A stretch of 62,959 bases of DNA, the filler included, from Dugesia japonica (Eukaryota), in NCBI GenBank assembly GCA_001938525.1. It is 6 parts of 6 records of this genome, joined end to end, with 100 filler letters (N's around TTAATTAATTAA, not from the genome) between each part and the next. Parts side by side here need not be neighbours in the genome. Positions count along the whole stretch, not along the records: positions 1 to 13,577 come from MQRL01584519.1; 5 more parts are not named here. One strand, given 5' to 3'. Positions 1 to 61,377 of the stretch are shown here, one piece after another. Each line of letters begins with the position of its first letter. Within the stretch, counting starts at the first letter, position 1. The translations under genes and the position numbers were made by a program. The notes beneath the pieces were generated by a model. That model saw only the letters and a list, made by a program, of their open reading frames with translations. It did no database searches and had not been told where the DNA came from.

Positions 1-1762
1 AATTTTACTCCACTCTTTAACGAAAAAGAAATTCGAACGTATTTATTAGTCAATTACCGGACTCTCGTTAACTTACGAAAAATATTATCAGGCAAGAAGT
101 AATCACCGTCAGGAGGAAACTTTCTAGTAATTTCTAATAAATTGGGCATTAATTAACCTTACTTCAAGGATAAGAAAAGTAACCAGTGGATCCTAGACCA
201 GAAAATTAGTTATCCGAGGTACCCGATTGTATTAGTCACTACCGATTGCGAGCACTGTTGCAGAAACCTTACTATTATTATCGAAAAGTAAAATTTTTTT
301 ATCTAAGATTATTATCATTGAATGATGAAGTATAAATATTATGCTTTAATAAATATACAAATTAAATAATTCTTTTGTTAATTTCTAAATTGAAGACCAA
401 TTGTTAAATTGGGCGAGNAAAATTATGGAAAAAAGAATTTGTAAGCTATTAATTCTCAATTATTAAAAGATGGTACTGACAGCAATTTTTGCCTTGCTAG
501 GTTAATAAAAAAATTATAATTGAAAAACCACACTCAAACGTATAAATATCCGTATACTATCAAGTAGCATAATTAAATATGTAATTTTATTTATTATTTT
601 AAGATTCAAACCGAAAAAAAATTAAGATGCTAATAATTTATTTATATAAAATTGTTACCTACAATATTATTGAAAAAACATAAATCCCAGAATTTCTATA
701 ATTAATTCTCCAACAATAAGAATAATGCATTACACTTTCAGGCAAATTCCATTGATTTCGTGGTTGTCTTGTGTCTTTTGTAACTCGGCATGAATGGGAA
801 ATAAAAATCTTGCTACTGATTATCTTAATTAGTTTTTGAATACTAAAAGACTGGCATGTCGATAAACTCCTAAGGAAAACGAAACAACACAACAGGCGAT
901 TGCGTATGTATGCATACTGAGAGAATCCCATCATCCATTTGATGTTTCCACACAGCTTAAAATTTTCTGTTGGTGTGCTCCCACACACAGTCTAACAAAC
1001 CTGCGGGAAGACCATTCTACTAAGGCAACAGTTGCTAAGTAACTCTCATAGTATACCGAAATTTAAAAATAATTTCTTTAGAATACCAAGAAAGGAAAAT
1101 ATTATGATTAAAATTAAATCTATGATCCATAAATAAATAGATAATAGTTGATTTCTTTAATATTACCGATAATTTAAATCTTGCTACTTGCTAAATTAAT
1201 ATGGATAATGATAAATTCAATTTAATAAAGTAATTACTTGAGGGAAGTTGAAAATAAAGTAATTAAGGTATCAAACTACCAGTATCACTGATCTTCCGAT
1301 TTTTTATTATATCCACCAATCTTATTAATTTAATTATTATTGTACTCCTAGTATTAACGCTATAATTTTTAGTATTATTATTACTTTGATTAGGATTATA
1401 CAAGTATTATCATTAGTCAACGCGGTTGTTGTTAACGAAACTACTTATAAGAGATTGTCACCATAATTATATTTACTTTCCATAATATTCTGAGAGTGGA
1501 AAAGTTTTTATCCACCTTCTCTGAGAAAGAGAAGGGTTAGAATAACCATTTTTTCTCTAACCATTTCTCTAACCACCGAGAATGGTTAGCATTCTCGGTC
1601 CTTCTCCTGCCCATCCAGGTTAACCTTCGTAACTTTATGAATAAAAATTGAAAGTAACTATATATTTTTTCTATTACTCTATTCTGTAAGTTTCCAAGTG
1701 TTGTTCCATATCTAAGCTCTGTGACTCTAGGTAAAGTTTTATTTTATTTCTCCTTTTAGTAA

Positions 1763-1918
1763 ATGCCAGCAGAACTACGCCATATGCTACACTGGATCAG
1801 ACAACAACGCCGAGCCGTTAGATTGAAACAATTACTAGCACACTATTTAACGAAAGGCCAGGTGGAACATCCCGACGAGACTGATCTCCAGTGTTTCGTC
1901 GAGATGTTTCCGCTCTAA
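1763..1918 (+). CDS. Family A module D, 51-aa ORF (MPAELRHMLHW...VEHPDETDLQCFVEMFPL)
   Basis: Pyrimidine tract plus AG at 1758-1759, ATG 1763, TAA 1918, AATAAA near 1945. A homolog (VEHPEEQD...EMIPL) lies at ~25275-25330. Confidence 0.5.
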   Translation: MPAELRHMLHWIRQQRRAVRLKQLLAHYLTKGQVEHPDETDLQCFVEMFPL

Positions 1919-2132
1919 CACAAAGTGGATATAGATGAAGAGTAATAAATCGCTCTAAATCATTGTGAAATCACTCATACAGAAATACATTTGTTCTTGT
2001 GTTATTTTAAATGCAAATCTTGTAAAATAAATCTTAGAACTCATTTTTATTTTGTAAAACACTCNTCAAATAAATTCTTACACCTTGGTCGTTAAATATA
2101 GCCTCACTGGTTGTTATTTTAGAATCGGCATT

Positions 2133-2558
2133 ATGGAATTCAAATGGGATGTGAGTCTGGATATTCATTTGGGCCGAACGGCATTTAAACGATACCAAAA
2201 CCCGTATAATCGTGACGCCGGCGTTCTAATCGATNNNNNNNNNNNNNNNNNNNNNNNNNNNNNNNNNNNNNNNNNNNNNNNNNNNNNNNNNNNNNNNNNN
2301 NNNNNNNNNNNNNNNNNNNNNNNNNNNNNNNNNNNNNNNNNNNNNNNNNNNNNNNNNNNNNNNNNNNNNNNNNNNNNNNNNNNNNNNNNNNNNNNNNNNN
2401 NNNNNNNNNNNNNNNNNNNNNNNNNNNNNNNNNNNNNNNNNNNNNNNNNNNNNNNATTATCCTCCTTTGTTCAAAACTACCTTTGGAGTGCTCGAAATGA
2501 GGCTTCTAATAGCAACAATGAAAATACCGAAAAAGAAATTGCAGAGGTTTCCGTGTAA
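2133..2558 (+). CDS. Family A module C ORF (MEFKW...YQNPYNRDAGVLID...), interrupted by an N gap
   Basis: Acceptor AG 2121-2122, stop 2558, AATAAA 2572. Homologs YYNPHNRVAGILVD (~5140) and VQNPFNRDAGIL (~25495). Confidence 0.55.
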   Translation: MEFKWDVSLDIHLGRTAFKRYQNPYNRDAGVLIDXXXXXXXXXXXXXXXXXXXXXXXXXXXXXXXXXXXXXXXXXXXXXXXXXXXXXXXXXXXXXXXXXXXXXXXXXXLSSFVQNYLWSARNEASNSNNENTEKEIAEVSV

Positions 2559-2689
2559 TGCTGTTACATAGAATAAACATTGTTAACCAACTCATTGTTT
2601 TTCTTTTATCAATAAACCCATCTATCTTCCTTTACTAAACTATACATCAGTTAAGATCCAAACTTTCTTCATTGTATTTGTATTTTCAG

Positions 2690-3048
2690 TGCATTCTTCC
2701 TCGAATAGATCCCAAGCCCCGAATAAGAAATTACGTGAAACCAGCGAAGACATCGAGCTTACGTGGGATTTATATCGGCTGGCTAAACGGCGGTGGGAAG
2801 CTGAAACCGCAACAGCCGAGGCTAAAGTTAAACGATATAAGCGAAAGTGCTTGACTTTCAAATCAGAAATAGAAGCAACCCAGTAGCAGGAAAGGGTATG
2901 GAAAGCACAAGTCAAATCCCTCACCGAATTCGTCAAGTCATACCAGGAGCGCGAAAATCATTTAAAAGAGAAAATCCTGAAGTTGAGAACAGCCATACCC
3001 TTGCCCCTACTGTTGATAGATAAAGGTACCCAGACCAACCGCTCGTGA
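2690..3048 (+). pseudogene. Family A module A coiled-coil protein (~119 aa, one internal TAG at 2884), ends IDKGTQTNRS*
   Basis: TTTTCAG|TG acceptor. The frame continues past the TAG to TGA 3048; AATAAA 3079. Homologous to 5662-6019 and 25823-26171. Confidence 0.7.
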
Positions 3049-3163
3049 GCTATCGTGTTTACGATTTTGATTGTCTTTAATAAATTNTTTTAANTGTATC
3101 AACTCTAATTTGCTTCTCTGTTTAAAATTGGTTTTAGCTGACTTAACTATACTTTTCATTTAG

Positions 3164-3546
3164 TGCCACGAATCGTATTCCCGACAAGTTTGCAAAGGTG
3201 TCACCGGATTATGCGACGATTATTGTTAGAACGCCATTTAAAACGTAAAACCGAACAGGCCCTTCTAAGACATCTCACCCAGAGGAACCGATTAATAAAG
3301 AAATTAGATTTAATAGTCAAAAAACAGAGTGACTTGGCTGCCCAAACCATGGCTCCTGAAATACAAAATAAACAAATATTACAGCGAAAGATAGATTTCT
3401 TGAAGCAATGCATAGCCGACCTGTTCAGCCAAATGGGAAACCCGGTATGGACGCAGTGGAATGACAATGATGATACTGCCGCGTTTGACTTTTGGGGGAC
3501 TGACCCGAATCAGTGGTTAGACCCTGGAGTGATGGAAGACATATAA
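3164..3546 (+). CDS. Family A module B, 127-aa basic/helical protein with acidic Trp-containing tail (MPRIVFPTSL...QWLDPGVMEDI)
   Basis: CATTTAG|TG acceptor, open ORF. The homolog at 6140-6522 shows many synonymous differences. Confidence 0.7.
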
Positions 3547-3792
3547 GTTGTAATACTAATAGATGTTTTGATAACTTTTGTCCCATTTTGTATCTATGTC
3601 TATAAGGGAAATTAATGGACCCAAATTAAAGGTGTACGAGTGCGAACCTCCCGTAAANGTCGAAGGTCAACCACTCTGCACTGAATATCCTACTGAAGGG
3701 CGTTGGATTTAAAATTCTTGAAAGGGTTCCCGGAGGGCTGTTTTTCCCCAGCCATCCTGTTCTTACTATCTAACTCAGGTGAAACCTCAACA

Positions 3793-5057
3793 TAAGTAAT
3801 GTTTGAAATGAATACAAAATAGTAAATTGCAAGTAATTCTTTCCACGTAGTACAATATCCTTTTTCGTAAATCGTCATTGCGTGTAACCCATATGCAATT
3901 ACTCTTTCTTACCCATTGTTTTCCTTTTGAGGTATTAATTTCCTAATCGTGTCGAAACTCGCATCCATATTCAAAATAAATTCTTTATTTATATCTGGAA
4001 AACATAGAATACGAGACATCATTAGTGCTACTTTCATTTACTTAAAAACCTCTTCTAATTCATTCGCTCATTCAATTTTCTTGTTACTCAGTCCACTACC
4101 CAGTTTTTCTAGCAATCTAGCTTTTTTCGAATAATCTTTAATAAACTAGCTATAAAAATTGCAAATTCCCGGAAAGCTTCATATATTTTTAAAGCATTTT
4201 GGTTTACCAAAGTTCTTAATTGCTTCTATTTTAGTTGGATCTGTTTTGACAACTTCTTTACTGATAACGTGTCCCAAAAATTTGATCTCCCTTTGCACGA
4301 ATTGACATTTTCTGGATTAACTCTTAGACCAGCGTTCCTAATTTCTGTAAATATTTTATTGATTATTTGATAATGTTGCTCTTTTGTTTCGGTAAATATG
4401 AGAATATCGTCTAGATAAACCATCGTTCCTTTTATTTTTCCGATTAGTTTATTCATCGTTTCCTAGATCGTACCTGGTGCTGCAACAATTCCAAAAAGCA
4501 TTCTATTTAAACAGAATTGACCTTATTTAGACGAAAAAGGCGTCTTTTCTTGAGAATCTTTACTGAGTTTCGCTTGGTAGTATGCATTTCCCAAGCCAAT
4601 TGAGCTAAAATACTACGTACCTTCCAAAACATCCAGCATTTCGTCCACATTTGTTATGAGAAAAGCTTATCTTTCTGTTATTGCATTAAGCTGTCTAAAG
4701 TCTTAGCATATTCGTAAATCCTTTTTTTCCTTTTTCCAAACACAGATTGATGACGTTCTTTACTGCAAATTACACTTCCATTTGATACCATTATAGTTTC
4801 TTGATGGCCTCTTCAATCCTCTCCTCTAGATTCATTGATTAGCGATATAGTTTTATGTTAATTGGACCTCTTTAGTGGTTATTCAATGCTTCGTTAAGTG
4901 TGTGCATTCAATGTCCCATTTAGCCGCCATAAATATATATCCTCATTATTCTGAATAATCTCAGTCAATCTATGATCTTTGTTAATTTTTAGAATCTCCA
5001 TTGCATGTCTCAATAGTTCAGCCGTCTGTATCTGCCTTCCAAATTTTTCTCTATAAT
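3793..5057 (-). mobile_element. Degenerate Ty3/Gypsy pol: reverse transcriptase and start of RNase H
   Basis: YLDD motif (MVYLDDILIF), EKGYCTTWKELLAI RNase H motif, frameshifts. Collinear with 23100-24390. Confidence 0.9.
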
Positions 5058-5661
5058 TGTTGGGGTGAAACACCCAGCTGAAGGAAAATATGAAGGAAAG
5101 GGTCATAGACCGAAGAAGTCGTCGAGTCTTTTTCCGGCGGTACTATAATCCACACAACCGCGTTGCCGGGATCTTAGTCGACAGGTCAAATTTACCTCCT
5201 GTCGAATCGATCGTCGAGCGCATCAGAGATTTTGGTGAGCGACAACGGTACTAGACGTGGTCAGGCCCTGATCGTACCCTGGTAACTTCTTTTCGTTACC
5301 AGTCTCTCCCTCCAACTCCAGCTCCCGCAGTACATGCTTTCATTACTAACCTGCTCTGGGGATAAGAGAGCCCACGGGTAGTGAAGACTCCGAAAACACC
5401 GCACCCGTGTCGGATGTATCAGCTCCTCCCCAGTGACTTATAAGGTGACCTATAATAAAATTGGCTCGGCTAAATTATATGTTAAACGTGTTGTCATTCT
5501 TAATAGATTTTTGTGTGTTTTGATCTCAGATGGTTTCCTAGGTGTATAAGTAGTTTTAGGTCATATATAACTTAGTAATCAGATTTATGACTACTATGTC
5601 GTTTTGGAACATAACTTTCTCTATTTTCGATAATATATATATATATATTTTCTCTTTTTAG

Positions 5662-6019
5662 TGCATTCCTCCTTAAACCGCCCCCCAGCTCCTACTAAAA
5701 AAATCCGTGATACCAGTGAGGACCTCGAACTCAACTGGGATTTATACCGGTTAGCAACATGCCGATGGGAAGCTGAGGTAGCGCAGCCCGTAGTAAAGTC
5801 CTCCGTTATAAGAAAAAGTGTGTTCACTTTAAAAAGGAAGCCGAGGCCTCCTATTTACTGGAGCGCCCTTGGAAAAAACAAGTGGAATCTTTTTCGGAAA
5901 TTATCCGGTCCGGCCATGACCGAGAAAATAAACTGGTTACTGATATCTTGCTTCTCCGGGAGAAAATCCCACTCGAGCCACTAATGATCGACAAAAGTAC
6001 TCAGACCAACCGCTCCTAG
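5662..6019 (+). pseudogene. Family A module A, copy 2 (one frameshift near 5783), ends MIDKSTQTNRS*
   Basis: TTTTTAG|TG acceptor; SEDLELNWDLYRLA shared with copy 1; TAG 6019, AATAAA 6046. Confidence 0.7.
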
Positions 6020-6139
6020 CTTGTTATTGCATTATTGTTTGAATTAATAAATTATTTAATTGTATCAAATTCTTCTGTTACTTGTTTTTCCCGAGTCGTA
6101 GATTAAGTATTCATGAATTTAATTTCACTTTTTCTTTAG

Positions 6140-6522
6140 TGCCTAGAATCGTGTTTCCTACTAGTTTGAGAAGGTGCCACCGCATCCTACGCCGCCTATT
6201 ATTAGAGTGACACTTAAAACGCAAAGCAGACCGAGCTCTTCTTAAGCACCTTGACCAGAGGAATCAACTCATCAAGAAATTGGATTTGGTAGTCCGTAAG
6301 CAAAACGACTTGGCAATCCAAACCAAAGCCCTAGAGGCAGAGACCAGGAAGTTACTGTTAAGAAAAATAGAATTTTTAAAACAATACATCTCTGACCTTT
6401 CCAGACAGATTGGGAATCCAGCCTGGATTCATTGGAACGATGACGAAGATGTCGTCGCCTTCAATTTTACAATAGACGAGCCAGATCAATGGCTAGACCC
6501 TAGCGTAATAAACGATCTATAA
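6140..6522 (+). pseudogene. Family A module B, copy 2 (CGA>TGA stop at ~6208)
   Basis: TTCTTTAG|TG acceptor; aligns without gaps to 3164-3546; AATAAA near 6533. Confidence 0.7.
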
Positions 6523-6762
6523 ATGTTATATTAATAAATGTTCCAAGAGGTATTGGTTTAAATTTTTGTGTAAAGTAAGGGAAATTATTGAACCCAAATA
6601 TAAAGGTTTGTGGGCGTGCACCTCCCATTAAGAGTGAGGTCAACCACCATGAACTGAATATCTACCCTAAGGGCGGTAGGTTAAATTCTTGAACGGGTTC
6701 CCCTAAGGGTTGTTTTCCCCAGCACACGATAATTTTCACTCAACTCAGGTGGGACCCCAACA

Positions 6763-8001
6763 TAATTATTGATGTCTACCTTGCACTTTTTCTGAATATG
6801 ATACACAAAAGTATTCTGTAATTCAACTCCACCAATTAAATCTGGTATTAATTTCTCCACTATAATAAATGTTACTTCCTTGCACACCTTTGAAACTACA
6901 ACTTCGACACGTATCTTTCCAATCGTCTCCTGTGAGCTGTTATTCGCGCAATGCAATAGTTCCTCGATTTTCTCTAACATTATTTCTCCGTGTCTATTAA
7001 ATCCTTTCATGCTCATCACATTTATTCTTGCTCCTGTATCCAATAAACACTCAAACTGTTCACCCTTGATCATCACTGAAAGGCTGGGTCTCCTTTGCAT
7101 TTTATCATACGAAATTTCTGCCTTCTGTTTTTCTTCAATTATTCCTATCACTTCTGCTTTGTTAACTTCCGCATCATCGAAAATTTCTCTATTTAGGAAT
7201 CTGTAAACTTTTTCTCTCACTTTATTTATCTCATCCCATTTCTCGGCCTCTTGAGGATATTTAAACGTTATCTCGTTTAATGGATGGCTCCAACCAACTC
7301 CTATTATTAATGTTTAATTATTAATGTTTTTATTAATGTTCGAATACATTCTTCTGCTCTGTGACCTGGTATTTTACATCTACGGCTTACAATTTCTGTG
7401 AACATCCTTTTGACATGACCCATCTTACTACACCTAAAACATTTTGGTGCTTTCTTGTCTGCCCTTTTTGTGACAAGTCCAACACTCCACATGAGAATTT
7501 TTAAACACTCTCTTATTGTATGCCCATAACTCTGGCATGTTCAACACTGTAGTTCTGTTCTTTTTGTAACTATATCAATATTTTGTCTCCTTTCTCCGAA
7601 ACGTTCTCCACGTGTTACACCAGTATAACTCTTTACTATGTTAATAAGTTCTCGTCTTTCTATTTTTTCAATCAAAGATAACATTTCCTTAATGTCTTCT
7701 ACTTTCTTCAATTTTCGCATGATAATCTCTTCTTCTGCTTTTTTACTATATGCACAAATTACTAGCACTTTTGATAAGAGTTTTTCTTTCTTTAGCTCTT
7801 CATGTGCTAAAAATGTATCGACCAAATCTTCCATTTTTTTATAAAACGCCTCAAATTTCATCACCATGTTGATGGCTTTCAATATTCTGTAAATCTTTTA
7901 TTATGTCTCTTGCTCTCAAAAGCTAATCGCAATCTCTCTCGATTTCCATCAGTTTTCTTCAATGTCTTTACATATACATCTGTTTGGCTGAAACAACCTT
8001 T
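6763..8001 (-). mobile_element. Degenerate Ty3/Gypsy gag (zinc knuckles) and aspartic protease; continuation of 3793-5057
   Basis: LLDTGARINV protease motif; CFRCSKMGH and CKIPGHRAEEC knuckles. Confidence 0.9.
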
Positions 8002-9050
8002 TGTGAAATATGGAAACCAGTGAAGGAAATAAATTAAAGGTTAATATGAAAATGAATAAGAATAAGAAATAAGAAATAAAAGAAATATTGATCTATAAAA
8101 TAATAAGGAAAAGATTATTAAATAATAATAACTGAAGTTAACAAGTTTAAGAAATATCAAACAAAATCTAGGGTAAAACAATAAAAAGAAAATAAAGTTG
8201 TATAAAGCTGTTGAGAAAAGGAAGAATTGAATAAATATTAAAATCTACAATGATTGAAGATAATCAATAATTAGATGGCTAAGGTAAAATGTGCTCAGAA
8301 AATAAGTCAAAGTGATCGAAAAGAAGAATGTGAATAAAACAAGGAATATCTATTATTAATTATAATTTGTTTAAATGTGTTGAAAGTATCCATGTTATAA
8401 AAATAAAATTATATTGATGAGAGAAAAAGAAAGATTAAAACAAATAATCATATTAAAATATTTTGATATTTTAGAGAGAAATTATAGGGGAAAACAAAAT
8501 AAATCATCATGATCATTATAAATAATAAAATAATAGATTATGAGTCAGGTTTAAAAACAAGAATTGTATTATTATTATAATTTTAGAAAAAATATAAAAT
8601 GTGAAATTATTATTATTATCGATAAATATAATTAAAATTATTATTATTGAATAAATATAATTATTTATAATGAACCCGGATGAATTATAACAAGAAAATT
8701 ATATGTAGAAGAAGATCTGATGATTTTGTGTAAGAATTTAGGATTGATATGTTTATATTTGCATGTGATTGTGGAGTTATCGCTATTTCTAAAACCCTTA
8801 CAAGTTTCAGAAAATTATTATTTTTTAAGAAAAATAATTATTTTTTTTAAGCCTCTCCACTTGAGGAAAAAAATATAGAACATCTGTGAGCACATAATCC
8901 ACTACAGAATTAACAAAAAATAAAAATAATCACGCCCATATTTGGACATCTCTGTAGAAGCTATGGGTGAACAACGTACGATTTCTTGCATTAGCAGAAA
9001 TCTGAAGTGGACGCCAACTGTGACTGTCAAAATTTGACGATACAGTGAGG

Positions 9051-9181
9051 TATAAAAGGCAAAGCAAATTTCTGTAGAATCAGACTAAAAATTTTCATTT
9101 TAAACTCTTGTTCACTTATTGTTAAAAGTGCCAAGTAGAATTCTCTCACATTGAAGGATCGGAACAAATCAAAAAGTAATT
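9051..9181 (+). promoter_or_regulatory. TATA box, putative start site (~9080) and non-coding leader ending AAATCAAAAA|GTAATT (donor 9175/9176)
   Basis: TATAAAAG at 9051, TCAG initiator-like sequence ~30 nt downstream, no ATG before a GTAAT donor. Confidence 0.4.
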
Positions 9182-10382
9182 CGAGTCATTTTATTTTTTT
9201 TAAAATCATTTATTCGACTATAAAGAGGGACTGAGGTGATGATCACTACTCATTAGCTTTGCTAGCAGTGGTGGCCGACACCGTTCAGCCATTCACTTCA
9301 CGAGATCATCCACCACGAGTCACCATGAGTTATGATGAGTTTTGTTACAGATGTTACGATAATATATGATTATGCTGTCCATGTTTATGAAGATATGAGA
9401 TGAAATTGAATAGTTAATTATAATTGTGAGACAAAGATTATATGATGATGATAAGACTGTAAAAGACATGAGTTGATAAGTGTTAATAAGCGAGGATAGT
9501 ATTATGAGAGAGAGGATAACGAGAACTGATAGTGAGTAAATGATAATGAGAGATATACGATTGTGAAAGGAGTAATACGGGTGATGAGAGAATGTTTATA
9601 AAAGTTTTGTGCTCAAATGTCGAATAGAAAGAGATGATGCTAACATCGGGCTCTGAAAGAGTTGTTTTTAAATATGGAAGAGTTGTTGACAGTTGATAGA
9701 TAAATATGATGAAAATGTATTAATAGATTTGAGTAGGAAAGAGATGTGGTTAGGTGGTGGTGTGGTTGAATTCTCTCATGATAATTTATTTTTCTATAAT
9801 GATTTTCTGGTGTATATTGACAAGTGGTAGTGTAAATGTGATGAAAATATCAATTTGGTTTATGTTTATGNNNNNNNNNNNNNNNNNNNNNNNNNNNNNN
9901 NNNNNNNNNNNNNNNNNNNNNNNNNNNNNNNNNNNNNNNNNNNNNNNNNNNNNNNNCAGGAGGACCATCTGACAGTTGGAGGGATGTGGATCGTCATTAA
10001 CATATTGTTCAAATGAAAGTTTAATCGAAACAAAAATTGTGATGACACGATAGAAGATATGATAATGAATGAGTAGCAATGAGGTGTATATGAATGAATG
10101 CAAGTAACATGATGATCCACGTCCAACCATAATGACGGATGATTGATGCATGTGATGCCAAAAGATAATTCCGTAATTATTATTTTATTATTCCACCATT
10201 GTTATATAAATACCTAATCGTGTAGCATTAGTTGTATTTTCTATATAGATAACTACGCAAATCACCAAGACAGAAGCTATACAATCATTGAAATCAGATA
10301 GATGCGTCTTCTAATCAAACATCACCAACAACATGCCAAACTCGTTGAGTTCAATCGGTGAATACAGAACCAATATCGATCC

Positions 10383-10757
10383 GTGGCGGATAACACAGGA
10401 TCGCCTTTGACAAAAGATCAAGATTTGCTAACTATGAAGGAGCAATTGAATCAACAACAGGAGTTACTGAAACAGAAGTCAGCGATAATCGATGACTTAC
10501 AGAAGAGGATAGAACAGCAAGATCAGGAATATAATGATCGAATAGCGGACATCACAATCGAACAAGAGCGTCGGGAAAAAGGGCTGGTATCTTTGCTCAT
10601 TTGCTCTACAGAACTGAATCGACATCAACAACACCTAATTTCGGCACACCTCGGAACAGAAGAGTATACTACAATGTCAGATCGTTTAAATACTACAATA
10701 GAGACGGCGCTTCGACAAGTCCTGATGCAATCTGATGAAACTTTGAATATCTCCTAA
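10383..10757 (+). CDS. Family B coiled-coil ORF (QLNQQQELLKQKSAIIDDLQKRIEQQ...ERREKGLV)
   Basis: Open 124 codons with heptad-like Q/E/K/L composition; candidate acceptor upstream at 10247-10248; true start uncertain. Confidence 0.5.
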   Translation: MADNTGSPLTKDQDLLTMKEQLNQQQELLKQKSAIIDDLQKRIEQQDQEYNDRIADITIEQERREKGLVSLLICSTELNRHQQHLISAHLGTEEYTTMSDRLNTTIETALRQVLMQSDETLNIS

Positions 10758-10965
10758 ACTTTGTTGTGATTCATATGTGATGTATGTGGTAAAATCAATA
10801 TAGTTTTCGATCTAGCATTTTTATGTTTTCGACTTCTTTGTCCAGTTAAACAGAATTAAAGATAAAATTATATGAGAATTATATTAATTCCGATTTATAA
10901 ATGTCTTCTTTATATAAATATGATGAACAATGCAATAAGCAATTTTAACGTTTTACTTATTGTAG

Positions 10966-11321
10966 TGTCTGAGGCCAAAAAGTTAACCGCGGAAACTTCG
11001 CTAGCGGACATTCACAGAAAATGGGTATCGGTACAAAAGAAATCGCAAAGCGAAATAACTGAACTACAACGGAAGAACTTATCATCAGGAGAAACCAATA
11101 CCAAGTTAAAAGAGAGAGATCTAGCCCTGTCCCAGTCTTGTCGAGAGATGACCGATATCGTCAAGGCCTATGCTGATAGAGAAGGAGTATTAATATCTAC
11201 GGTGAGGATATTAGCACAAGTTTCGAAGTCGGAGAAAGGAATCTCAAAGGAACAGCCCAGGAAGTCATTGAATTGGATGTATGAGAAACATTGGATGGGT
11301 GATAAATATAGATACGAATAA
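10966..11321 (+). CDS. Family B coiled-coil module ((M)SEAKKLTAETSL...MTDIVKAYADREGVL...)
   Basis: TTGTAG|TG acceptor in frame; TAA overlaps AATAAA 11317-11322; resembles module A (LTEFVKSYQERENHL). Confidence 0.6.
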
Positions 11322-13621
11322 AATTTTGTACAGATTGTATTTCTGAATTTTTGAATATAGCAGGAGTTAATAATGATTAATGACGTTTAATTATAAAACG
11401 AGAGCCGGATAGAAATTGGAACCTAAGACGGGATACAGTATAGTCCCGCTAAATCCGTAAAAATGGGGATCGTGTTACTAGAAAGAGTAACACAAGTTTC
11501 TGTGGTTGCTGGGTATCATGTCCAGACAGAAAAGATATTTGAAAGAAGATCGATTATGATAATATTAAAATTAAAGATCAAAATGGATAAGGATTAAGAT
11601 AATATCAAAAAGCCTAGCAACCCCACAGGAATTTTGGGGGCTCAGCCGGGATCCTTATTTAAACTTATCTGAGAAAGTTCTTTCAACAGATTTTAGCTGA
11701 CTCCAACTTATAAAAGCAATTAATTTAACAAGTGCGATGAAAGAATAGATCATTTGTTATTACATTAACATTTTATATGTTCGATCTTCTGGAATAATAT
11801 CTTGTGATTGGAGGTGTCCTTTATTGATTCATTCATCGAGAGTGGAGGCAAATTGTGTGGTATGTTTTGATCGATATGATGACCTTAATAATAAAATATT
11901 CCGTTACTAAGTATAATTATAAAAGATATTCAAATAAAAATAACTGAAATTTTATACGTTAATTTTAGCTTTTAACAAATATTTGTAGAAAAAATCCACA
12001 AATGAATAAAAGGACTAAATAAAAAGAAAATNACAAGAAACNGTTTTTCTATTTTCTTGAGAACTTTTAGAAATTTTTTTTTGCAATACGAATTTCAAGA
12101 GTTAATGCATATTGTAGTATAATGCATGTTTTTGTAATAATACTAATAGGAGTTGAATAAAGAAAAAATCGGAAACTTTTTTGTAGATGAAATATGAAAA
12201 ACTACATGAATACAAAAAATGTAATTTAAATGAAATATTCCAAAAGTTAAAGAATAATGGCAACTTTATAAGGATCGGATATTTATCAATTTTGTGCAAA
12301 TAAAAGAGGATATGACGACAATAAACGAGAAAGAGAAGATGAGGATCAATTCAAGGATATAAATGTACAAATAAAAGTAGAAATTGATTTTTATAAAGTA
12401 TTTAACACAATTTAGTATTTTAAGAATTTAATTAATATGCCTTCTTTTTCTTATTTGTTTTGCTTGATTTTCTTAATGGGCTTAGATAATGTTCAACCAC
12501 CACTAGACGACAAAACTGAATTTCAATAAAATGGTCAATTTTATTTTCAATAAAATAATTAATTAAAATTATAAAAACGAAATATGAAGTCCAGAAACTA
12601 ATAAGAGCTCAGGATAAAATGAATTTTTAGGAGATATGAATGGATGATCTCGGAAAGTAGTGAGAATTTGTGCATTGCTTATAATAATTATTTTGATATT
12701 TTAAATGATTTTATCTATTTATGGTTCGCTTTTTACTTAAAATTTTCGTGAATTAATTCGAAGGAAAATAATGATTTTCTAAAATAACAAAATTTAATTC
12801 ATATTTAATTTCGGTAAATAAAATCGATTATATTAAATTGCAAAAAAGAGGAAATCATTTAAATAAAAAAAACCAGTGTGGTTGTGATTCATTCGTTAAT
12901 TCCAAATTTATATTTGAATTTATTTAATCATTTATAATTTAATTGAATAAATTTTCATTCAATGGAAGGGCCGTATAAAATTTTAAAAAAAAGCTATTTA
13001 ATTTTGAGAAACTTGTACTAATATAGTATTAATATAGTAAATAAGTTTCCATTAAAATAATAGGCATCAACAACTAGAAATATACTTCACAGATTAAGTC
13101 TTGTACTGAGTAGTAACATATTCAAAAAAACAATTATCAAATAGCAGTATTACCCTAATAAATAACAAAGAAATTTTAATAAATAACCATTTAAATNTTT
13201 CAAAATCAGACTGTACAGCAATTAATTGGTTATTTCAGAATGTTATTGTATATTCACGGTGTAGGGATAAAATTAATTTTGCGTACTTATACATGGATAA
13301 CCAATTTTTATTAACTTTTGTTGAAATGTCGCTGAAAAACACTTAATACAATAACTATTATAAAGATATTTGTAATTTATGCTAAAGAATACTATGCTAA
13401 AAAANNNNNNAAAAATTTTCATAAAAGTACAAAACAAAATGGGCATTTTTGAAAATTTTAAAAAAAATACAAAAAAATAAAAAATTCTAAGTATAATACA
13501 ATAATAATATCTAAAAGACTTTTCTGTATTAATCAAAAAGATTTTTTTTTGAAAAATTTTTTGTGTTGATTTAAAAANNNNNNNNNNNNNNNNNNNNNNN
13601 NNNNNNNNNNNNNNNNNNNNN

Positions 13622-22470: not shown

Positions 22471-25246
22471 CTTCATCTTGCTTTGTCATTGCTATCATTA
22501 CTACATTTGTTTATTATACCGAGAACATATTTTTCCGACTTCTTGCGACCGGCAGTGGTTCACACACATCTATAAATAACAGTTCAAACATTTTGGCTGG
22601 CTGCGTCCTTTTTGTTTCTTCTTTCGTTTTTATTGTCCACATTTTAGCTTTCTGGCATGTTATAAAACTTTGGACAACCTCTTATACTTTGCTCCACAAA
22701 TGTTTTGCGTTATATTTATGCTTTATATACGCTGTCACTTTTTCTGCTCCAGCATGACACAAAAGATGGTGTATCCTCATTATAACTTCTTCTATCTTCA
22801 TCATTCTCACCAAAATTGCCATGTTTTATTTAAATATCTACTGTACTTAACATCCCTGTTTTTAATTTTCCACTTTGGGATCCTCGTTTGACAATAGACA
22901 TTGTGCACATGTATTGCATTTACTCATTGACGACATATCCGCATTTGTATGAAGCGATCCTTTTCTATATTCCAATTTTATATCTAAACTGCTCAAATAA
23001 TTAATCCAGGCTTGTAACTGTGATGTAAATGGCTTCTTGGTATCTAGCATAAAAGTAATGGCTTTATAGTCTGTTCTGAGGATAAATCTCTTCCCATATA
23101 ACTAATGTTTGAAATGAATACAAAAGTAGTAAATTGTAAGCAATTCTTTCCTTGTTATACAATATCCTTTCTCACGACTCGTCATTGCGTGTGACCCATA
23201 TAAAATTACGCTTTCTTGCCCATTGTTGTCCTTTTGAGATAGTACTGCCCCAATTTCATTGAAACTCTTATCCATGTCCAAAATAAATTCTTTATTTAAA
23301 TCTGGAAAACATAATATTGGAGACATCATTAGTGTTTCTTTAATTCCATTAAAAACTTCTTCTAATTCATTCGCCCATTTAATATTCTTGTTACTTGGCT
23401 CACTACACAGTTGTTCCAGCAATCTAGCTTTTTTCGAATAATCTTCAATAAACTTGCGATAGTGATTGCAAATTCCTAAAAAGCTTCTCATTTTTTCAAA
23501 CTCATTTTGGTTTGCCAAAGTTCTTAATTGATTTTATTTTAGTAGGGGCTGTTTTTACACCTTCTTTACTGATAACGTGTCCCGAAAATTCGATCTCCTT
23601 TTGCATAAATTGACATTTCTCCGGATTAACTCTTAGACCACCCTTCTTAATTTCTGTTAATACTTTATTGATTATTTCATAGTGTTGCTCCTTTGCTTCG
23701 GTAAATTTGAGAATATCATCTAGATAAACCATCGCTCCTTTTATTTTCTCGATTACTTTATTTACCATTTCCGCGAACGTATCTGATGCTGCTGCAATTT
23801 CAAAAAACATTCTATTGAAACAAAATTCACCTGGTTTAGTCGAAAAAGCCATCTTTTCTTGTGAATCTTCCCTGAGTTATACTTGATAGTATACATTTCC
23901 AAAGTCTATTGAGCTAAAATACTCCGTACCTTCCAAAGCTTCCAGCATTTTTTCCACATTTGGCATAGGAAAAGCTTGTCTTTCTGTTATTGTATTGATC
24001 AGTCTAAAGTCTAAGCATAATCGTATATCCTTTTTTTCCTTTTCTAAAAGCAGATTAATGGCGTATTCCATTGCGAATTACACTTCCGAATAATACCACT
24101 ATGATAAAGATTTTTGATAGCCTCTTTAATCTTCTCCTCTAGATTCATTGGTTGGCAATACGTTTTCATGTTAATTGGACCTTCTTTAGTGATTATTCAA
24201 TGCTTCGTTAAGTGTGTGCATCCAATGTCCCATTTATCAGCCATAAATACATCCTCATTATTCTGAATAATTGCAGTCAATCTATGATCTTTGTTAATTT
24301 CTAGAATCTCCATTGCATGTCTTAATCGTTCACCCGTCTGTATCTGCCTTCCAAATTTTGCGTCAATATTACAAACAAAATTTTCTCGATGATTATTGAT
24401 TTTTACCCTGCACGTTTTGTGAAGATGGTACCCAAAGGTATTCTGAAATTCCACTCCACCAATTAGATCTGGTATCAGTTTCTTTACTTTTATAAATGTT
24501 ACTTCCTTGCATACCTCTGAAACTACAATTTTCACACGTATCTTTTTAATTTTCTCCAATGAGCTGTTATTCGCGCAATGCAATCGTTCCTCGCTTTTCT
24601 CTAACATTGTTTCTTCGAGTCTATTAAATCCTTTCATGCTCATCACATTTATTCTTACTCTTGTATCCAACAAACAATCAAACTGTTCACCTTTGATCAT
24701 CACTGAAATCCTAGGTCTTGCATTTTATCATATAAAATTTCTACATTCTGTTTCTTTTCAATTATTACTATCACTTTTGCTTTTTTAACTTCTACATCAT
24801 TGAAACTTTCTCTTTGTAGGAATCTGTAAACCTTTTCTCTCACTTTAATCGTCTTATCACATATTTTGGCCTCTTGAGGATATTCAAACGAGATTTTGTT
24901 TAATGAAAAGCTCCCACCAACTTCTCTACTGATGGAGCCCTGCCTTTTGAATATTCTCTTCTTGGATCTTCATTTTCTATTATGCTCCCAGAAAATATTT
25001 CTTCATTTTTTTCATCATTCTCTTCTTGAATAGCATGAATTGGTTTGGTTTGATTCCAATCTTTTGTTTGTTGTCCGCTTTTAAAATTGTATCTTCTCCC
25101 TTCTAGTTTATTAATGTTCGAATAATATTCTTCAGCTCTGTGACCCGGATTTTTACATCTACCACATATAATTTCTGTACACATCCTTCTGATATAATCA
25201 ATCTTACCACACCCAAAACATTTTGGTGGTTTCTTGTCTGGACAAT
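22471..25246 (-). mobile_element. Degenerate Ty3/Gypsy gag-end, protease, RT, RNase H, partial integrase (same family as 3793-8001)
   Basis: CGRCKNPGH, LLDT, RLCLDFR, YLDD, KELLTI..FKH, HTNAD, HHLLCH/CQKAK/FIDVC in Gypsy domain order. Confidence 0.92.
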
Positions 25247-26792
25247 TTTTCTACTTAAATGCTACATCCTAAACTGTTGAACACCCAGAGGAACAGGATT
25301 TAATGTACTTTACGGAAATGATTCCGCTGGAACCTTCCTCTCTTGATATCTGTCTAGCAGATGGGGTGTCTAAGACCTCATTGTTTTCTTTAATAAATAT
25401 TATTATTGGTTAAATAACTTACTTTTCATATTTCTTTTACAAAAAGAATTGAAATTAGTTCCGCTCAGTAATGGAACCATGAATTTCCACAGAGTGCAGA
25501 ACCCATTCAATCGTGACGCAGGAATATTATAAGATAAAAAAAATCTGCCCCAATAAGAACGGATAGATCAACGCGGTAGGAACGTGGTCAAACGCTGGCT
25601 TTACCAGAATTTGCCTCCCAGACACATGAGTTATTTAGATCCTCATTCTAATCCGTCGCAATCTTTTACTAAGGATTTTGGTAACTATCGTTTATCGTAC
25701 ATTCAATAAATCTTATACGTTAAATAGATTTGATTTTATATCTAAACTGCTGTCATAAACCCCATGATTTTACATCCAAACTTTTTTTTTATAATCTCAG
25801 TTTTTAACAGTCTATTTTTAAGTGAACAAAAACTCGTACAAAATCTTTGAACTTCTACTAGGAAATATAAGAGTCATAGTGAAGATCAAGAAATGGCATA
25901 GTAGTTATTTAAATTAGCGAAGCAACAAACGGAGGCAAAAGTCGCTACAGTCTAGACTAAGAAACGTCAAATAAAAAACACTTTTTCTCGTAGAGGCGTA
26001 CGTACACAAGAACAAGAACTTCCTTTAAAGACACAATTAGAAATCTTCACCGCATTGCTAAAACAATCACACAAAAGATAAGATCACCTGGTCTAAGATG
26101 TGTTAAAATTACGGGCACAGATGTCTCTTGAACGTGTCATGATCGATCCTGGTACTTAAACCCGCCAATGAATTAAAATCGAAAAAATAAATCTTTGCTA
26201 ATCATGATTTCTTTTTAATTTACTTAGTCTATGCTTTTATAATATAATGATTGATCTTTGTTTCCTAAGTGCGTACATATCAACATCGATGTACAATTAT
26301 CATTGCAAATTACAAGGATTACGACTAAAACATCTTTACTATAAGCATCGAGTAAAGATGTTACTCCAGCATACGTCAAATTGAAACAGCACGCAAATTT
26401 CAGTTATTTATTGCTAATTCAACTATAAACTACCTTTTCCACAGTCCACAGTCCCAAAAAACCTACTAAGCGTCAAGCTTTGAAATAACTCAGATGACGC
26501 AGCTCTATTTGACCTGGAAGACGAAATACCACCTAGCTAGTGCTAGCGAATTAGTGTTTTTTAAATAAATTCTCAGAGCCATAGAGTCGTTTAATCGTTT
26601 AATAAGATAATAGAATTAGAAGAATAATATTGAACTCAGACCGAAGGAATACTCAAACTACGAGTTTCAAATCATCGACTCTATTCCGAAGATCTAGTAT
26701 AGGAACGCTAGACTAAATTCTTAGCGGGGTTCTACTGGGTGACCGACCCCTAGGTCATAAAATAAACATCCAACCCAGATGAAACCTCAACA
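25247..26792 (+). mobile_element. LTR-like element, family A divergent copy 3 (5' truncated) with decayed modules D, C, A, B
   Basis: Ends GATGAAACCTCAACA. Modules in the same order; acceptors AG|TG at 25823 and 26270; SEDQEMA..LFKLAK, MIDPGT*T and DAALFDL homologies. Confidence 0.75.
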
Positions 26793-27759: not shown

Positions 27760-30196
27760 TGTATGCTTTTATGAATGTATTTGGTTAATGAATGTTTAGA
27801 GTTTATGTGTCTATAGGGTCTATGCATGTATTTGGTTTATGAGTGTATAGGGTTTATGGGATTTATGAAGTTTTATGTGTTTAATGAAATTAATGGATTT
27901 TATAGTGTTTAATTCTTTTCATTGTTTAATAGGTTTATTTAATTTTAAAAATTTTAAATGGTTATATAGTACTATGTTTATATGAGTATTTGGTTTAGTA
28001 GTGTATATGGCTTATTGGTATATATGGCTTATAAGTGTATGGGTTAATAGTATATTGGGTTTATGAGTGTATAAGGTTTTGAGCGTATGGTTTCATGAGT
28101 TTCTAGGGTTTATCAGTGTTTAAAGTTATGAGTGTATGGTTTTATGAGTGTATAGAATTTATGTATAAGATTTATAATGTATTTATAATGTATAAGATTT
28201 ATAAGTATATATGGTTTTATAGGTTTAATAAAATTATTGGTTTTTTAGACTTAATGGGTTTAATAGGCTTAATTGGTTTAATGGTGTTAATAATCGAATG
28301 TGTTTATTAGGGTTTAATAGGTTTAATGGATTTAATTATTTTTGTTACATAATAATTATTTTAGTGTGAAATATTTGTTGTTCTTGTATGTATTATTATT
28401 TTCGACATGAAATGATTTTAAAATATTTCAAATTATCTTTAAATGACTACAATGTCTATAATGTTTGAAATTAATTTGAAATTATTTAAACTTGTTACGT
28501 TGTAGTATTTTAAAACCAATTTGAAATAATCTGAATATATTATCTTTTAAATACACACATACTCAAATCTGATTGGCTATTTGTGAAAACCTTATACAAA
28601 ATGTTATTATTTTCTCATAATTTCAAAATTATGTCAAAATCAGTGAATTAACAGAGCAAAAAAGTAAATTTATTATTTGTTACTTATTATTATTTTTTTA
28701 CTTTTAGATCAATATTATGGAATTATATGTATGTTTATTAATAAGTAATTATAAGTCACAGTTGACTCAATATTATCATCTCGTTAATATATAAAAATGT
28801 TGAGAAACTAATAAAGAAGAATAAAATAAATTAAAAATAAATTAATTTTATGGAATATTATTTAATTATTGTACATTTGTTGCATTTAATGTCATTGTTT
28901 TATAATTGTTTTAATTATATGTATTTAAATACTATCCTATTGTTTTCCATTTATTATTTATTTTAATAAAATTAAAACAAAAAGCACATTAAAAATTAAC
29001 AAAATTAATTTTTTTAATAAAAAGTGTACATATAGATTTCTTCAGAATGAGGAGTGAGATATATGTTTCGATATCATTCATCCTTCACATCTGATGCCTA
29101 AAAAAGAAATTTTCAAACAGATATGTAGATTCCATTAAAATTAAAAACTTCACGTTTATTTATTAAAGACTTTTAAGTTCAACTTTCGAGTAAACGACAG
29201 TAATCAACCAGCAATATTTATGTCATTTTAGGATATAATGTAAAGTCCAAACGCCTTTCCTGTTTAATTATTTCATCGATAGTTCAGGTATGTTTGTGAT
29301 GGCTATTTAAAAGAGCTTGTCCATTGAGTTGTGTTACGCTGGTAGTGTTTTGTAGATACATTTTCAAACGTCAGAGAGTTGAAAATGAACTCTCACTGGT
29401 ACATGTGGATACGGGTATTGTGGCTAAGATTTGCAGAAGCTTTCTGATATTTATTTGAAATGTTGCATTACAGACTGCTATGGCATCTAAGGTATTTCTT
29501 GGAATACCATTTTGGCTCACACGTGACAGAAGACGATATCATAGTTTCATTTCTGTAATAGCCGAATCTATTTGTATATAACAATAGTTTTGGTATTTTA
29601 TTATTTTAGGGGATGACTTTTATTTAGGCACATGAAGTTGCATAAGAAAATGAAATTTTATTTCATACGCCAAAGGAGAGGTTTAACCCCCTAAAACTCC
29701 CCTGGATACGACACTGAATGTATGCATTATTTTAACTCGAAATATTATTAAGCATTTTCAAATTATTTAAAAATACTGCAGTGTAATATATTTAGATTAT
29801 TTCAAATTATTTTCAAACAATATAGACATATTACGTTGTTGTAATTTAAAGATAATTTAAAATATTTTAAAATTATTTCATGTCCAAAATAATAATACAT
29901 AAAAAAAAACAACAAATATTTCAAACTAAAACAATTATTACGGAACAAATATAATTAAATCCATTAAACCTATAAAATCCTAATAAACACATTAAATCTA
30001 TTAAGACTATTAAACCAATAAAATTCAATAATTTCACCGAAGCTATAAAACTCTATACACTTATAAAAGTATACACTAATAAATTCTATGCACTCAAAAA
30101 CTTCATACACTTAAACACTCTATACACTCATAAACCCATACACTAAAATACCTTATACGCTCATTACCTTACACACTAAAAAACCTATATACGCAT
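27760..30196. mobile_element. Foldback-like element with long inverted arms built of short tandem subrepeats
   Basis: 28290-28560 is the reverse complement of ~29717-30020; outer arms have (ATGAGTGTATAGGGTTT)-like versus (AAACCC..TACACTCAT)-like repeats. Confidence 0.65.
29220..29716 (-). mobile_element. Internally deleted hAT transposon with C-terminal dimerisation domain
   Basis: Minus strand reads LATIPVSTCTSESSFSTL*RLKMYLQNT; terminus CAGTGTCGTATCCAGGGG at 29716. Confidence 0.75.
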
Positions 30197-43007: not shown

Positions 43008-43172
43008 NNNNNNNNNNNNNNNNNNNNNNNNNNNNNNNNNNNNNNNNNNNNTTAATTAATTAANNNNNNNNNNNNNNNNNNNNNNNNNNNNNNNNNNNNN
43101 NNNNNNNATTAATTTTATTAATATTATTATTATTAATAAAAAATAAGCAACGCCATTTAAAATAAAATTTTA

Positions 43173-43211
43173 TTGTCACATTTCGACGGATCAACCGTCA
43201 TCATCAGACAA
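43173..43211 (-). ncRNA. Degenerate minimal hammerhead (Penelope-like pseudo-LTR)
   Basis: Minus strand: TTGT-CTGATGA-T-GACGG TTGAT CCGTC-GAAA-TGTG-ACAA; cleavage triplet altered. Confidence 0.55.
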
Positions 43212-43619
43212 AAATGAAATACATGAGTTTATTCAGTCTATTATTTTAACAAAGATTCAAGAAATTATACTGAATATAAGATGCCTATAATTCCTAATTT
43301 TATAAATTTTAACAATTTTTCAATAAAAAATTAATTTATATTCTAATAAATTTTTTCCTATAATAATATTTTATCAAAATTAGTATTTTAAACCTATAAA
43401 ATCAAAGACGCTTTTCAAAAATATTTAAAATTTTTATTTTAAATTATATTTTAAAATTTTTCAAAATATAATAATAATTAAATTGAAAACTACTTTAAAA
43501 AACGAAAATACAAAACTTATACAAACCTATAAAAACATGAAAATATATTAAAATTCCAAAAATTGTAAAATATTTTTTGATAACTAAAAAATTCTAATCA
43601 ATTTAGTCGATACATGTCA

Positions 43620-44375: not shown

Positions 44376-44699
44376 GATCATTGATCCTTTCCAAAAAAGT
44401 ATATATCCTTCATCATCGCTATATGTAAGCATCTCTGCTAGCACCTCTGATTTTCTGTTTCTTTTCCTTCTAGATACCTAATTATCAGTTTCATTGTTAA
44501 TAGAAATCAAAATACAGTTGGATTAGCTTTATCATTGAAATAATGAAAATCTGAGTTTTACCGAGGGAAATTTGATCATAGAAAATACCTAATTCATTCA
44601 CTTTTTGTCCCCTTTGATATTTTAGGATATGTTTTCGTATATAATTATTTTAGTACGCTCAAACCTGTTTTTGTGCGATTGTTTTTGTGTGGTATATGA

Positions 44700-46840: not shown

Positions 46841-46859
46841 CTTTAATTTGAAACTTTTA

Positions 46860-49948: not shown

Positions 49949-50056
49949 ATTATCAAGATATCAAAAAATCAGAAAATTAATGAATTCGTTTATCTTTGTT
50001 AAACGATTAATATTCACAGCATTCATTTTTTCATTCATAATGATGATAATAACGTC

Positions 50057-50057
<1 letters not shown>

Positions 50058-58880: not shown

Positions 58881-61377
58881 AATTTTTATCAACACAGCAA
58901 ATAAATACTAAGTATTAGTAATTTACATTAAAAAGTTATATTTAAATACGATAATGATTGGTTGAATTAGTACAAACAGGATGTTTTTCAATGTTGTTAC
59001 CTTCCAAAATAAGTAACAACGAGAACATTAGATTATTATTTTATCAATATTTGATTTTATATTTGATATCTGTGTATTGTTTTGTGATTAATAATTCAAG
59101 TTTAATTATACTATCATTACTAAAAATGAAAATTCGTATTTAAAATTAGTAAGTAAATACTAAAAAAATTTTTAAAAATGTCGCAACGTTTGTATTTTTT
59201 CTGTTAGTTGTAAACAATATTTTTTTTAATAAAAAGAAGATAATTTTGCATAATTTGTAGTTATAATATCAAATCGATTAATTAAATAGTTTGTTTTGGT
59301 ACAATTGTTTGGCTCCTAAACAATCCAAACGGAGAGATAAATATTTGATTTGTGGATGTATTTATATTTGCTTATGTGATAAAACAATCAGAAAAAAAAG
59401 TTAAAAATTTCGCATAGAATATCTGCATTTGCAGTCAATTTAATTATGGCATAAAAACTAGTGTAATATTAAATTAAAGTATCATATAAAAAGAGAATAT
59501 ATTATAAAAAATAATAAACAAAAGGTTATGGATAATCAGTAACCATATCAATAATATAGTTGCGCAGCGAACATAACTGATGACTGGAGCACAATACATT
59601 TTTGGCACCCCTAACCCCTGAAAAACAGTAATATGATATATAGCAGTGGTTCCCAAACTTTATCAGTCGTATATCCTTCGCCCAAAAAAAACTATTAAAT
59701 TATTTTTGACGCAGAAAATCTTGTGTCTTCAGGACCATTCGGCGCTCTTCTGCGATAATATAATCATAGTTGGATTCATAAAATAATCCTAGTGGGATTT
59801 CACTATTTCAGCCTTATTTATGTATAATAGTCATATTTGAATTCACTATTTTGCTGTTCCTGGTTATAATTTTATTATGTAAATCATAGGTCTAATTTAA
59901 TGTATCAAATTTTCTTTTAATCATCTAGTAAAAATTGAGCGACTAATTAATATCGATTTAACCTTAAGTGATTTAGCCAGTGCTGAATCAAACATCACGG
60001 AGGTTGAAAAAGTTGAACAGTTACAGTGGTGAAAATCGAAAGCTGTCCGTCTGATCAAAGAAATGGCGACACTGTACCAATAGAATAATTAATTGCTTGA
60101 GAAGAATAGACACATGTTGGTGGACGTAGTAGAGTCTTTTATGAATCACGAAGACAGCTTAGTCGCCAATGTGCGCTTATTATAGGTGCATATAGAAACC
60201 GTAAAAATAATCATCCTGAACGATAAAAGCCAGAATAACAGGATTAAGACAGCGGAGAGCGAGTCAGAAGATTCGGGGGTTACGAGTGACATTTTCCCTA
60301 ATTCTTGTTTGTATCATGTGGATGTTTTGATTATGAATTAAATGTATAGTGTAAATTGGGTATTGGAACTGAATATATGATTTTCTTTTAATATTTTTTG
60401 CAACTACTTAGCCATCTTTATAGATCATGTGTGATGTGATTATTGATTTTTCAATAAAGTAGTTGATAGCATTTTATTTTTGAATGGAAAAATATTCATC
60501 ATATCTAATAATTTTGGGATTGATAAACTCATATTTCTAAAATTACATTATTATTAAATATTATCTCATTTATAATGATTTCTTTAGGCATTATATAGTT
60601 TTATTGTTATAAAATCAATAAATACAGTATTTATGCCTAATTAAAAATTCTTTTTAAAAATACAAATATTTTATATTTTTAAAATAAGATTAATTTAGCT
60701 CGGTAAAACAAAACGCGCTCTAATCGTAAGAGCTCTATAAATTCTATTAAAAATTACATTTACTATTACTCTACAAAGACATTACAATGATTATACTAAA
60801 CTAAAAAATGTTAGTCGGCCAAAATATAACTTTTAACAATTAGTTGGTAGTATGAGTAAAATAAATTTACCAAAAAAAGCTATAATATTTTTTATTTTAA
60901 TTTATATTTTTTAATATTTTCACTATACTATTTTTTAAATGATGAAGAGCTACTTTGCCAAATATTAGTGCAGTTTTATACAATTTTTCAACAATTGAAA
61001 TTTCTCCAGCATACATAGTAGGTTATTCTATCGTATTTTGCAATATTTTATCAAATGATTGACGAACAAAAATGATAAGAGAGTATAGATCCATAAAATC
61101 ACTAGTGTTGCATACGATACCATACCGTGCGATATGGTATGGTATCCCGTACGATACCATCTACCTAATATGTTGGTAATTGAAATGTCTCAGATCAGGA
61201 GACAAGGTATTGGTATGACTTTATCACTAATTGACAATGGCCCAGAATAAGATTCACTATTAACGTTGGGTAAGAGTCACCGGAGTTGCCATCCATGTAC
61301 TCAAATGAAGAGTACATCAAATCATCGTTTGTGGGATATGAAGTGATGTTTATTTTTTCGAGCCATATCACCCATGA

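Follow-up and report, generated by a model that had tools for sequence, protein, structure and literature searches.

The Dugesia japonica sequence analysed here, termed the window, is a stretch of 62,959 nucleotides from assembly GCA_001938525.1 and consists of six AT-rich scaffolds with spacers between them. The first scaffold (1-13577) holds a 3.7-kb unit at 7981..11688, the family-B unit, which is likely a long terminal repeat (LTR), the 5′ one, of an adjoining minus-strand Ty3/gypsy element. The plus-strand exon modules within it would thus be antisense accessory genes of a retrotransposon. By a slight balance of probability, the unit is an LTR-borne antisense cassette in which the last A of a non-coding leader and the TG that opens a module exon form the start codon at 10966. 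Transcription would start about 25 nt downstream of a TATA box at 9051, antisense to gag-pol. Splicing from the donor at 9175 would reach alternative last exons, each of which carries a poly(A) signal of its own, and the 9175-10966 joint would create the ATG of a 118-residue helical protein. Part of the evidence comes from relatives of the unit elsewhere in the window: two family-A copies (A1 and A2), a decayed A-type copy (C), and a further decayed relative (D).

Predicted promoter, leader and module exons

The predicted antisense core promoter is located at 9043..9057 on the plus strand, and the TATA box that the initial annotation placed at 9051 is present as TATAAAA. Its context is common to B and to A2; the pattern, which was picked post hoc, occurs only at 5431 (A2) and 9043 (B), with 0.04 occurrences expected. 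The predicted non-coding leader exon ending in A spans 9076..9175 (+), with a 5′ end deduced from the TATA box. The ATG-free leader and its donor were also found as described: 9060-9175 holds no ATG, and A9175 is followed by the donor GTAATT at 9176. A TATA box, an ATG-free stretch and A|GTRAK occur together seven times in the window (three on the plus strand and four on the minus strand), which is not above chance for sequence alone, and 255 of 1156 windows of 100 nt lack an ATG.

Module B2 lies at 10966..11321 (+). Its acceptor AG10965|TG is present as first annotated, in frame with an open reading frame (ORF) of 117 codons at 10968-11321 that contains MTDIVKAYADREGVL, and 10966 is the only polypyrimidine acceptor within this frame. 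The first methionine is codon 61, and AATAAA overlaps the stop (11317). Structure prediction gives a single long helix at residues 2-89 (88 residues), with a mean predicted local distance difference test (pLDDT) score of 79 and a predicted template modelling (pTM) score of 0.37. B2 is a real-looking exon. Signals of the AATAAA type at or shortly after stops (3079, 6046, 6533, and 11317) fit alternative last exons; such hexamers are common here.

The module acceptors share further features. All nine are in phase 1, and six of them read AG|TG, compared with 25 of 449 background polypyrimidine-AG sites; the nine amount to about three independent lineages, which include two unrelated modules. A shared coding exon upstream would leave both bases after the acceptor free, whereas both would be fixed by a non-coding leader with a final A.

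Selection was measured on family A. Over 124 codons of the plus frame of module 2, A1 and A2 differ at proportions of 0.94 of synonymous sites (pS) and 0.19 of nonsynonymous sites (pN), and two parts of module 1 have synonymous and nonsynonymous distances of dS 2.3 and dN 0.18, and dS 2.5 and dN 0.46. The shifted plus frames have no synonymous excess; in the mirrored minus frame the signal recurs more faintly. The family-A modules are genes under strong purifying selection, and the near saturation of their synonymous sites bears out the earlier view that the system is old. The conservation between A1 and A2 begins at the first codon after the acceptor, and methionine is absent from the 118 codons of A1 module 1 and the 126 codons of A2 module 2. 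Modules that lack an early methionine and are conserved from the acceptor must obtain their start codon from upstream. Strong purifying selection combined with the lack of a shared early methionine thus favours an ATG made by splicing.

Module B1 (10249..10757, +) has the acceptor AG|AT at 10249 and a coiled-coil-like frame with stops at 10299 and 10359, which is open at 10362-10757 (131 codons). The initial annotation had placed a coiled-coil ORF with the motif ERREKGLV at 10383. The motif is present in the ORF 10362-10757, but 10383 is a GTG inside the longer frame and was rejected as a start, as this frame reaches back through two stops to the acceptor at 10249. At the first stop, the sequence of other copies is different (519 of 558 depth in DNA run X1), so the break is decay private to the present copy. 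They also differ at 10251, where an exon would open with a whole ATG in another frame. B1 would be expressed by another route, starting either at a downstream ATG of its own (10302) or in a coding exon upstream.

The two B frames are longer than chance. Among 2000 dinucleotide resamples of 10200-11400, two frames of at least 131 codons on one strand occurred once, and one frame of at least 151 codons occurred 12 times. The GC content of the B frames is 0.41-0.42 versus 0.24 in the spacer between them. All Pfam matches of the modules were below the cut-off, with no family over it for B1. Protein word-index searches with B2, A1 module 1, and B1, limited to candidates of near length, found no relatives. 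The ESM Atlas returned only generic coiled-coil clusters at 0.90 for B2, with low recognition, and no match for A1 module 2.

A GT..AG skip of 9992-10105 was observed in three RNA-like contig sets (X8, X10, and X13) and is unlisted in the DNA run X1; its splice signals are weak, and it is possibly a deletion in some copies. Trans-splicing was rejected as a reading of the leader, because spliced leaders are not known to end in a lone A.

The family-B unit and its host element

The unit has TG...CA termini with short inverted repeats of about 8 bp, namely TGTT at 7981 and CAACA at 11688, and such termini are common to B, A1, A2, and C. The left end is probably 7981, which matches the first bases of family A (15 of 18 identical, by eye). 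The left end at 8002 given in the initial annotation was rejected as the homologous terminus. A drop in depth of about 70-fold or larger is consistent with the right end at 11688.

Depth was summed over the DNA contigs of run X1 at 80% likeness; as contig depth is no copy number, only the shape of the profile was used. It is about 20,000-50,000 over 7900-9269, continuous from gag, and 17,000-46,000 over 11325-11735, and past the bin containing 11688 it drops from 28,000 to the 160-395 seen beyond 11736. Between these flanks lies a variable LTR part at 9270..11324, which comprises the intron and both modules, with a depth of 260-5300 compared with 17,000-50,000 on either side. The inner dip over the module region is also seen in X8, and one X10 contig skips 8761-11420. 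The shape of the profile shows that the right end is real, that gag and the left part are equally abundant, and that a minority matches the module region.

The adjoining host element, a copy of what is likely an abundant retrotransposon, is a decayed Ty3/gypsy gag-pol at 3793..7980, read leftwards on the minus strand. It comprises a gag-like ORF (7897-7541), a zinc knuckle, a protease, the A2 insertion, a reverse transcriptase (RT), and an RNase H. The domain order zinc knuckle, protease, RT, and RNase H was confirmed on the minus strand with the Pfam families zf-CCHC, RVP, RVT_1, and RT_RNaseH(_2), and the matches within 3793..7980 include zf-CCHC (1e-9), RVP (4e-6), and RVT_1 (5e-9). This copy is truncated at 3792 by A1. 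A second copy at 23098-25240 is 84-85% identical and matches RVT_1 (5e-14) and RT_RNaseH_2 (2e-23); an integrase zinc-finger-like stretch was seen in the sister copy near 22600-22800, by eye only. The host RT had no match in viral contigs, and a search of metagenomes with the RNase H gave one remote locus, L001 (35% over 43 residues).

Several observations make it likely that the unit is this element's 5′ LTR: the Ty3/gypsy domains end beside it, the depth is continuous from gag and drops at the right end, and the related A2 combines TG..CA ends with a target duplication and an empty site. No target-site duplication was found around B at either candidate left end (7981 or 8002), as is expected for a 5′ LTR. 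The B copy is partly decayed, with two stops in B1 and a gap in the region of the gag start. The A-type units at 3792, 5058-6762, and 25275 are all inside copies of the host gypsy family and in the same orientation. Another decayed gag-like element, unrelated to the host and also bearing zinc knuckles, is found at 39000-42435 (-), with a zf-CCHC match of 7.5e-7 at 40836-41291.

Family A and the probable kinship of module B2

A1 (2690..3792, +) contains two AG|TG modules (2690 and 3164) and a right end; its left end was not found. An ATG-started frame of about 50 codons at 1760-1945 (+), behind an acceptor-like site upstream of the A1 modules, is perhaps a further module (by eye). A2 (5058..6762, +) resembles a solo-LTR insertion, is flanked by a 4-bp target duplication (TAAT) and carries AG|TG modules at 5662 and 6140, and its empty site is seen as the joint 5047-6765 in RNA reads of relatives. 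C (25275..26792, +) is the third, decayed A-type copy; it abuts the gag of another host copy, has the acceptors AG|TT (25801) and AG|TG (26270), and matches A module 1 with tblastn E values of 2e-5 to 3e-8. D (59929..60293, +) is a decayed relative of the family of module 1 and B2, with the phase-1 acceptor AG|TA. The sequence at 45764-46538 opens with the 17 bases of family A and ends in CAACA after a TATA-like motif. It is located downstream of a plus-strand zinc-knuckle-like ORF (45175-45459), in an orientation opposite to that of B and gag.

The initial annotation regarded B as a highly diverged family with the architecture of A and no clear nucleotide similarity beyond the 5′ end. No blastn match was found, and the best N-free local nucleotide scores of B against A are 30-34, but a short likeness at the TATA context is present as well. 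The TG..CA unit, the plus-strand promoter, and the phase-1 acceptors before compact ORFs are shared, while the AG|AT of B1 departs from the common architecture.

From protein comparisons, B2 is probably a remote relative of family-A module 1. The 15-residue match between them that was first quoted is weak by itself (tblastn E 0.28 in the window). An ungapped match of B2 to A1 module 1 covers 59 residues, and its score was reached by 1-3 of 500 plain shuffles and 15-17 of 500 heptad-block shuffles (p of 0.002-0.03). With a profile of A1, A2, and C, D (E 0.046) and B2 (E 0.33) rank highest among the non-self loci in a set of 2094 tiles. A B2 and D profile places A1 and A2 at the top (E 0.002 and 0.01), and the profile-profile comparison of A with B2 (hhalign) has an E of 0.001 in the same register.

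A five-row alignment searched against 1.84 billion proteins gave three matches with E values of 4e-4 to 8e-4. Two of them, P0001 and P0003, are unnamed proteins of 83-101 residues on short ENA and Logan contigs; they share the B2 motif and are mutually 52% identical. P0003 is 41% identical to B2 over 61 ungapped residues and matches A1 with an E of only 0.012. The third is a repetitive lamprey protein, probably noise, and as it scores as well as the other two, P0001 and P0003 are probable rather than certain relatives. No loci of B2-like proteins were found in scans of viral and metagenome contigs.

Diversification by module duplication, which had also been suggested, found no support. The likeness of B1 to B2 was matched or beaten in 370 of 500 shuffles and that of A module 1 to module 2 in 273 of 500. 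B1 resembles A module 2 weakly (28-63 of 500 shuffles). The motif ERREKGLV was discarded as proof of kinship, with the B1 tile at an E of 8-13.

Other features of the window comprise host-like coding pieces, seen by eye, at 58100-58700 (-) and 49660-49900 (+). These are a protein kinase with short introns, which we take to be Pim-like, and a small cysteine-rich protein, presumably CRIPT-like. Long imperfect inverted repeats (70-80% identity, 250-490 bp) at 28050-30192, 43133-54144, and 43617-44377 are probably non-autonomous DNA transposons.

Weighing of the readings and comparison with known systems

The split ATG through the joining of 9175 to 10966, which was proposed at the outset, is the best reading of the region and a likely one, but several observations weigh against it, foremost in RNA. 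Eight of 24 listed runs were used, seven RNA or RNA-like and one DNA. The raw RNA comprised three runs, of which 6%, 25%, and 26% were read (about 5,300 million letters), and four contig sets guessed to be RNA were added. The 9175-10966 joint is absent among the joints listed for these three raw RNA runs and four RNA-like contig sets. The modules are nearly silent, with a raw RNA depth of 0-0.24 over 10221-11355 and 0-0.08 over 9086-9312. Many raw reads come from relatives of gag and protease and some cover 8405-9085 and 11356-11800, with almost none over 9086-11355. As the depth over the modules is near zero, the missing joint is too thin a result to count against splicing. One X20 contig ends exactly at 9175, and the X20 depth is zero at 9182 and 9187, where three other runs continue, which is a weak hint of donor use. 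This contig comes from one study only and starts at 8986, upstream of the TATA box. Two X20 contigs run through the 10966 acceptor unspliced at a depth of 2-3; genomic DNA or minus-strand RNA would give the same result.

Other adverse points concern the sequences themselves. The acceptor of B1 lacks the AG|TG start, ATGs lie between the TATA box and the candidate donor in A2, and the selection values are those of family A alone. The nine acceptors were chosen with the frames known, and rival sites at A2 and C score equally. No TGG start of a primer-binding site adjoins 7981 or 8002, with zero tRNA genes found for comparison; a second LTR or 3′ end of the element is absent from the scaffold, and few RNA reads extend from gag beyond 7975. 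For the kinship, the adverse points are the E of 0.33 for B2 in the A profile, the hhalign probability of only 22%, and the first spotting of D through its likeness to A, which makes the B2 and D profile not fully independent.

It is unlikely that the modules are real antisense LTR exons whose start codon is supplied by a coding exon further upstream, with an incidental TG and a donor other than 9175. Such an exon would suit the lack of TG in B1, C module 1, and D, the 13 donor-like sites between 9060 and 10965, the chance occurrence of the promoter-leader pattern about seven times in the window, and the skip of 9992-10105 in X8, X10, and X13. It is opposed by the TG at the start of A1 module 1, the unrelated module 2, and B2, where the background is 5.6%; C and D are decayed and one base off TG, and B yielded no upstream coding exon. 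Rather more doubtful is an independent TG..CA mobile element that landed where gag begins, be it a non-autonomous DNA element or the solo LTR of a different family. In its favour, A2 has been proven to be inserted in the host pol, host sequence also borders A1 and C, the A-type 5′ end at 45764 is in the same sense as the zinc-knuckle ORF, and a primer-binding site was not seen at 7981. An insertion of this kind is hard to reconcile with the absence of a target duplication at both candidate left ends, a right flank that is of low depth and not host sequence, and a depth that is continuous over 7900-9269, with no loose end at 7981 or 8002 among the best-supported rows. Its terminal inverted repeats would also measure merely about 8 bp.

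The likeness of B2 to family A could also be coiled-coil bias, with the B frames being captured or chance sequence unrelated to family A, which is improbable. The low hhalign probability, the heptad-block shuffles that match the score in about 3% of trials, and the unrelated repetitive lamprey protein that scores like both candidate relatives point in this direction. In opposition, the pairwise, hidden Markov model, and profile-profile tests give one ungapped register, the third locus D matches both A and B2, the TATA context and termini are common to A and B, and two long frames arise in 1 of 2000 resamples.

The spliced-ATG cassette has partial counterparts in known elements. HBZ of HTLV-1 is spliced and has a leucine zipper, and its coding part is mostly outside the LTR. 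It belongs to a vertebrate retrovirus, and its comparison with the B modules by sequence was through Pfam only, with no likeness. PMC7264820 and PMC11963269 describe it as an antisense accessory gene expressed from a promoter in the LTR. The same papers describe ORFs antisense to gag-pol and of unknown function in the plant Ty3/gypsy elements maize Grande (gene23), rice RIRE2, and Retand (TRP28); that of Grande has its own promoter, and one has an SMC-type domain. The family-B frames are likewise antisense to gag-pol, but the plant ORFs, as described there, lie between pol and the 3′ LTR, whereas those of B are apparently within the LTR, behind acceptors, and in an animal. The B modules are located upstream of gag within a TG..CA unit, and TRP28 (PF04195) had no Pfam match in the B frames.

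In the springer subclade of the Drosophila errantiviruses, env is spliced from an AU dinucleotide, according to PMC12992720. The predicted accessory exon of B would similarly depend on splicing to a non-coding piece upstream for its start codon. The errantivirus env of that account is sense, internal, a membrane glycoprotein, and split as AU|G; B2 appears to differ in being antisense, LTR-borne, helical, and of about 120 residues, with a predicted A|UG split. The B modules had no env match in Pfam, and they are neither sense nor downstream of pol nor membrane glycoproteins. The planarian giant gypsy Burro/GYPSM1 has accessory coding capacity in an AT-rich animal genome, and its extras, according to PMC6431247, take the form either of domains within a 4,873-residue ORF1 or of a separate ORF upstream, in contrast to the host element here with a short gag directly before the protease. 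Rice Retrosat2, a plant element, is reported to have LTRs of more than 3.2 kb and an orphan extra ORF, ORF0 (PMC3485330); it was compared by its long LTR and orphan ORF only. The available parts of two papers on planarian LTR elements (PMC8532177 and PMC11410931) contain nothing on LTR-borne ORFs. Full-text searches of the open literature listed no LTR-borne antisense cassette; subscription journals and repeat-library reports were outside these searches, and supplements may already describe the family. Precedents exist for each ingredient, and the searches turned up no animal gypsy LTR that combines them.

Descriptions of accessory genes in LTR retrotransposons mostly place them between pol and the 3′ LTR, and what they do is still open (PMC7264820). 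Since the proposed cassette occupies the variable stretch of the LTR, each copying of an LTR would copy it too, and solo LTRs such as A2 would retain it. Because the module exons have no start codon in the DNA, ORF finders would miss it. It is possible, though the proposal is tentative, that the modules are coiled-coil binders that act as accessory factors, regulating the element or blunting host silencing. Equally tentative is the existence of an animal Ty3/gypsy clade that uses its LTR as a gene cassette, with one antisense promoter, a leader ending in A, and exchangeable last exons starting in TG. If so, no protein would be made until splicing selects a module, the modules would vary between subfamilies while the LTR ends are conserved, and each solo LTR in the host would be a self-contained mini-gene for a small coiled-coil effector. 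If the cassette reading is true, solo LTRs would carry along a spliced, selected, multi-exon cassette, and whether coiled-coil proteins encoded by an element regulate it or counteract host silencing could be tested directly.

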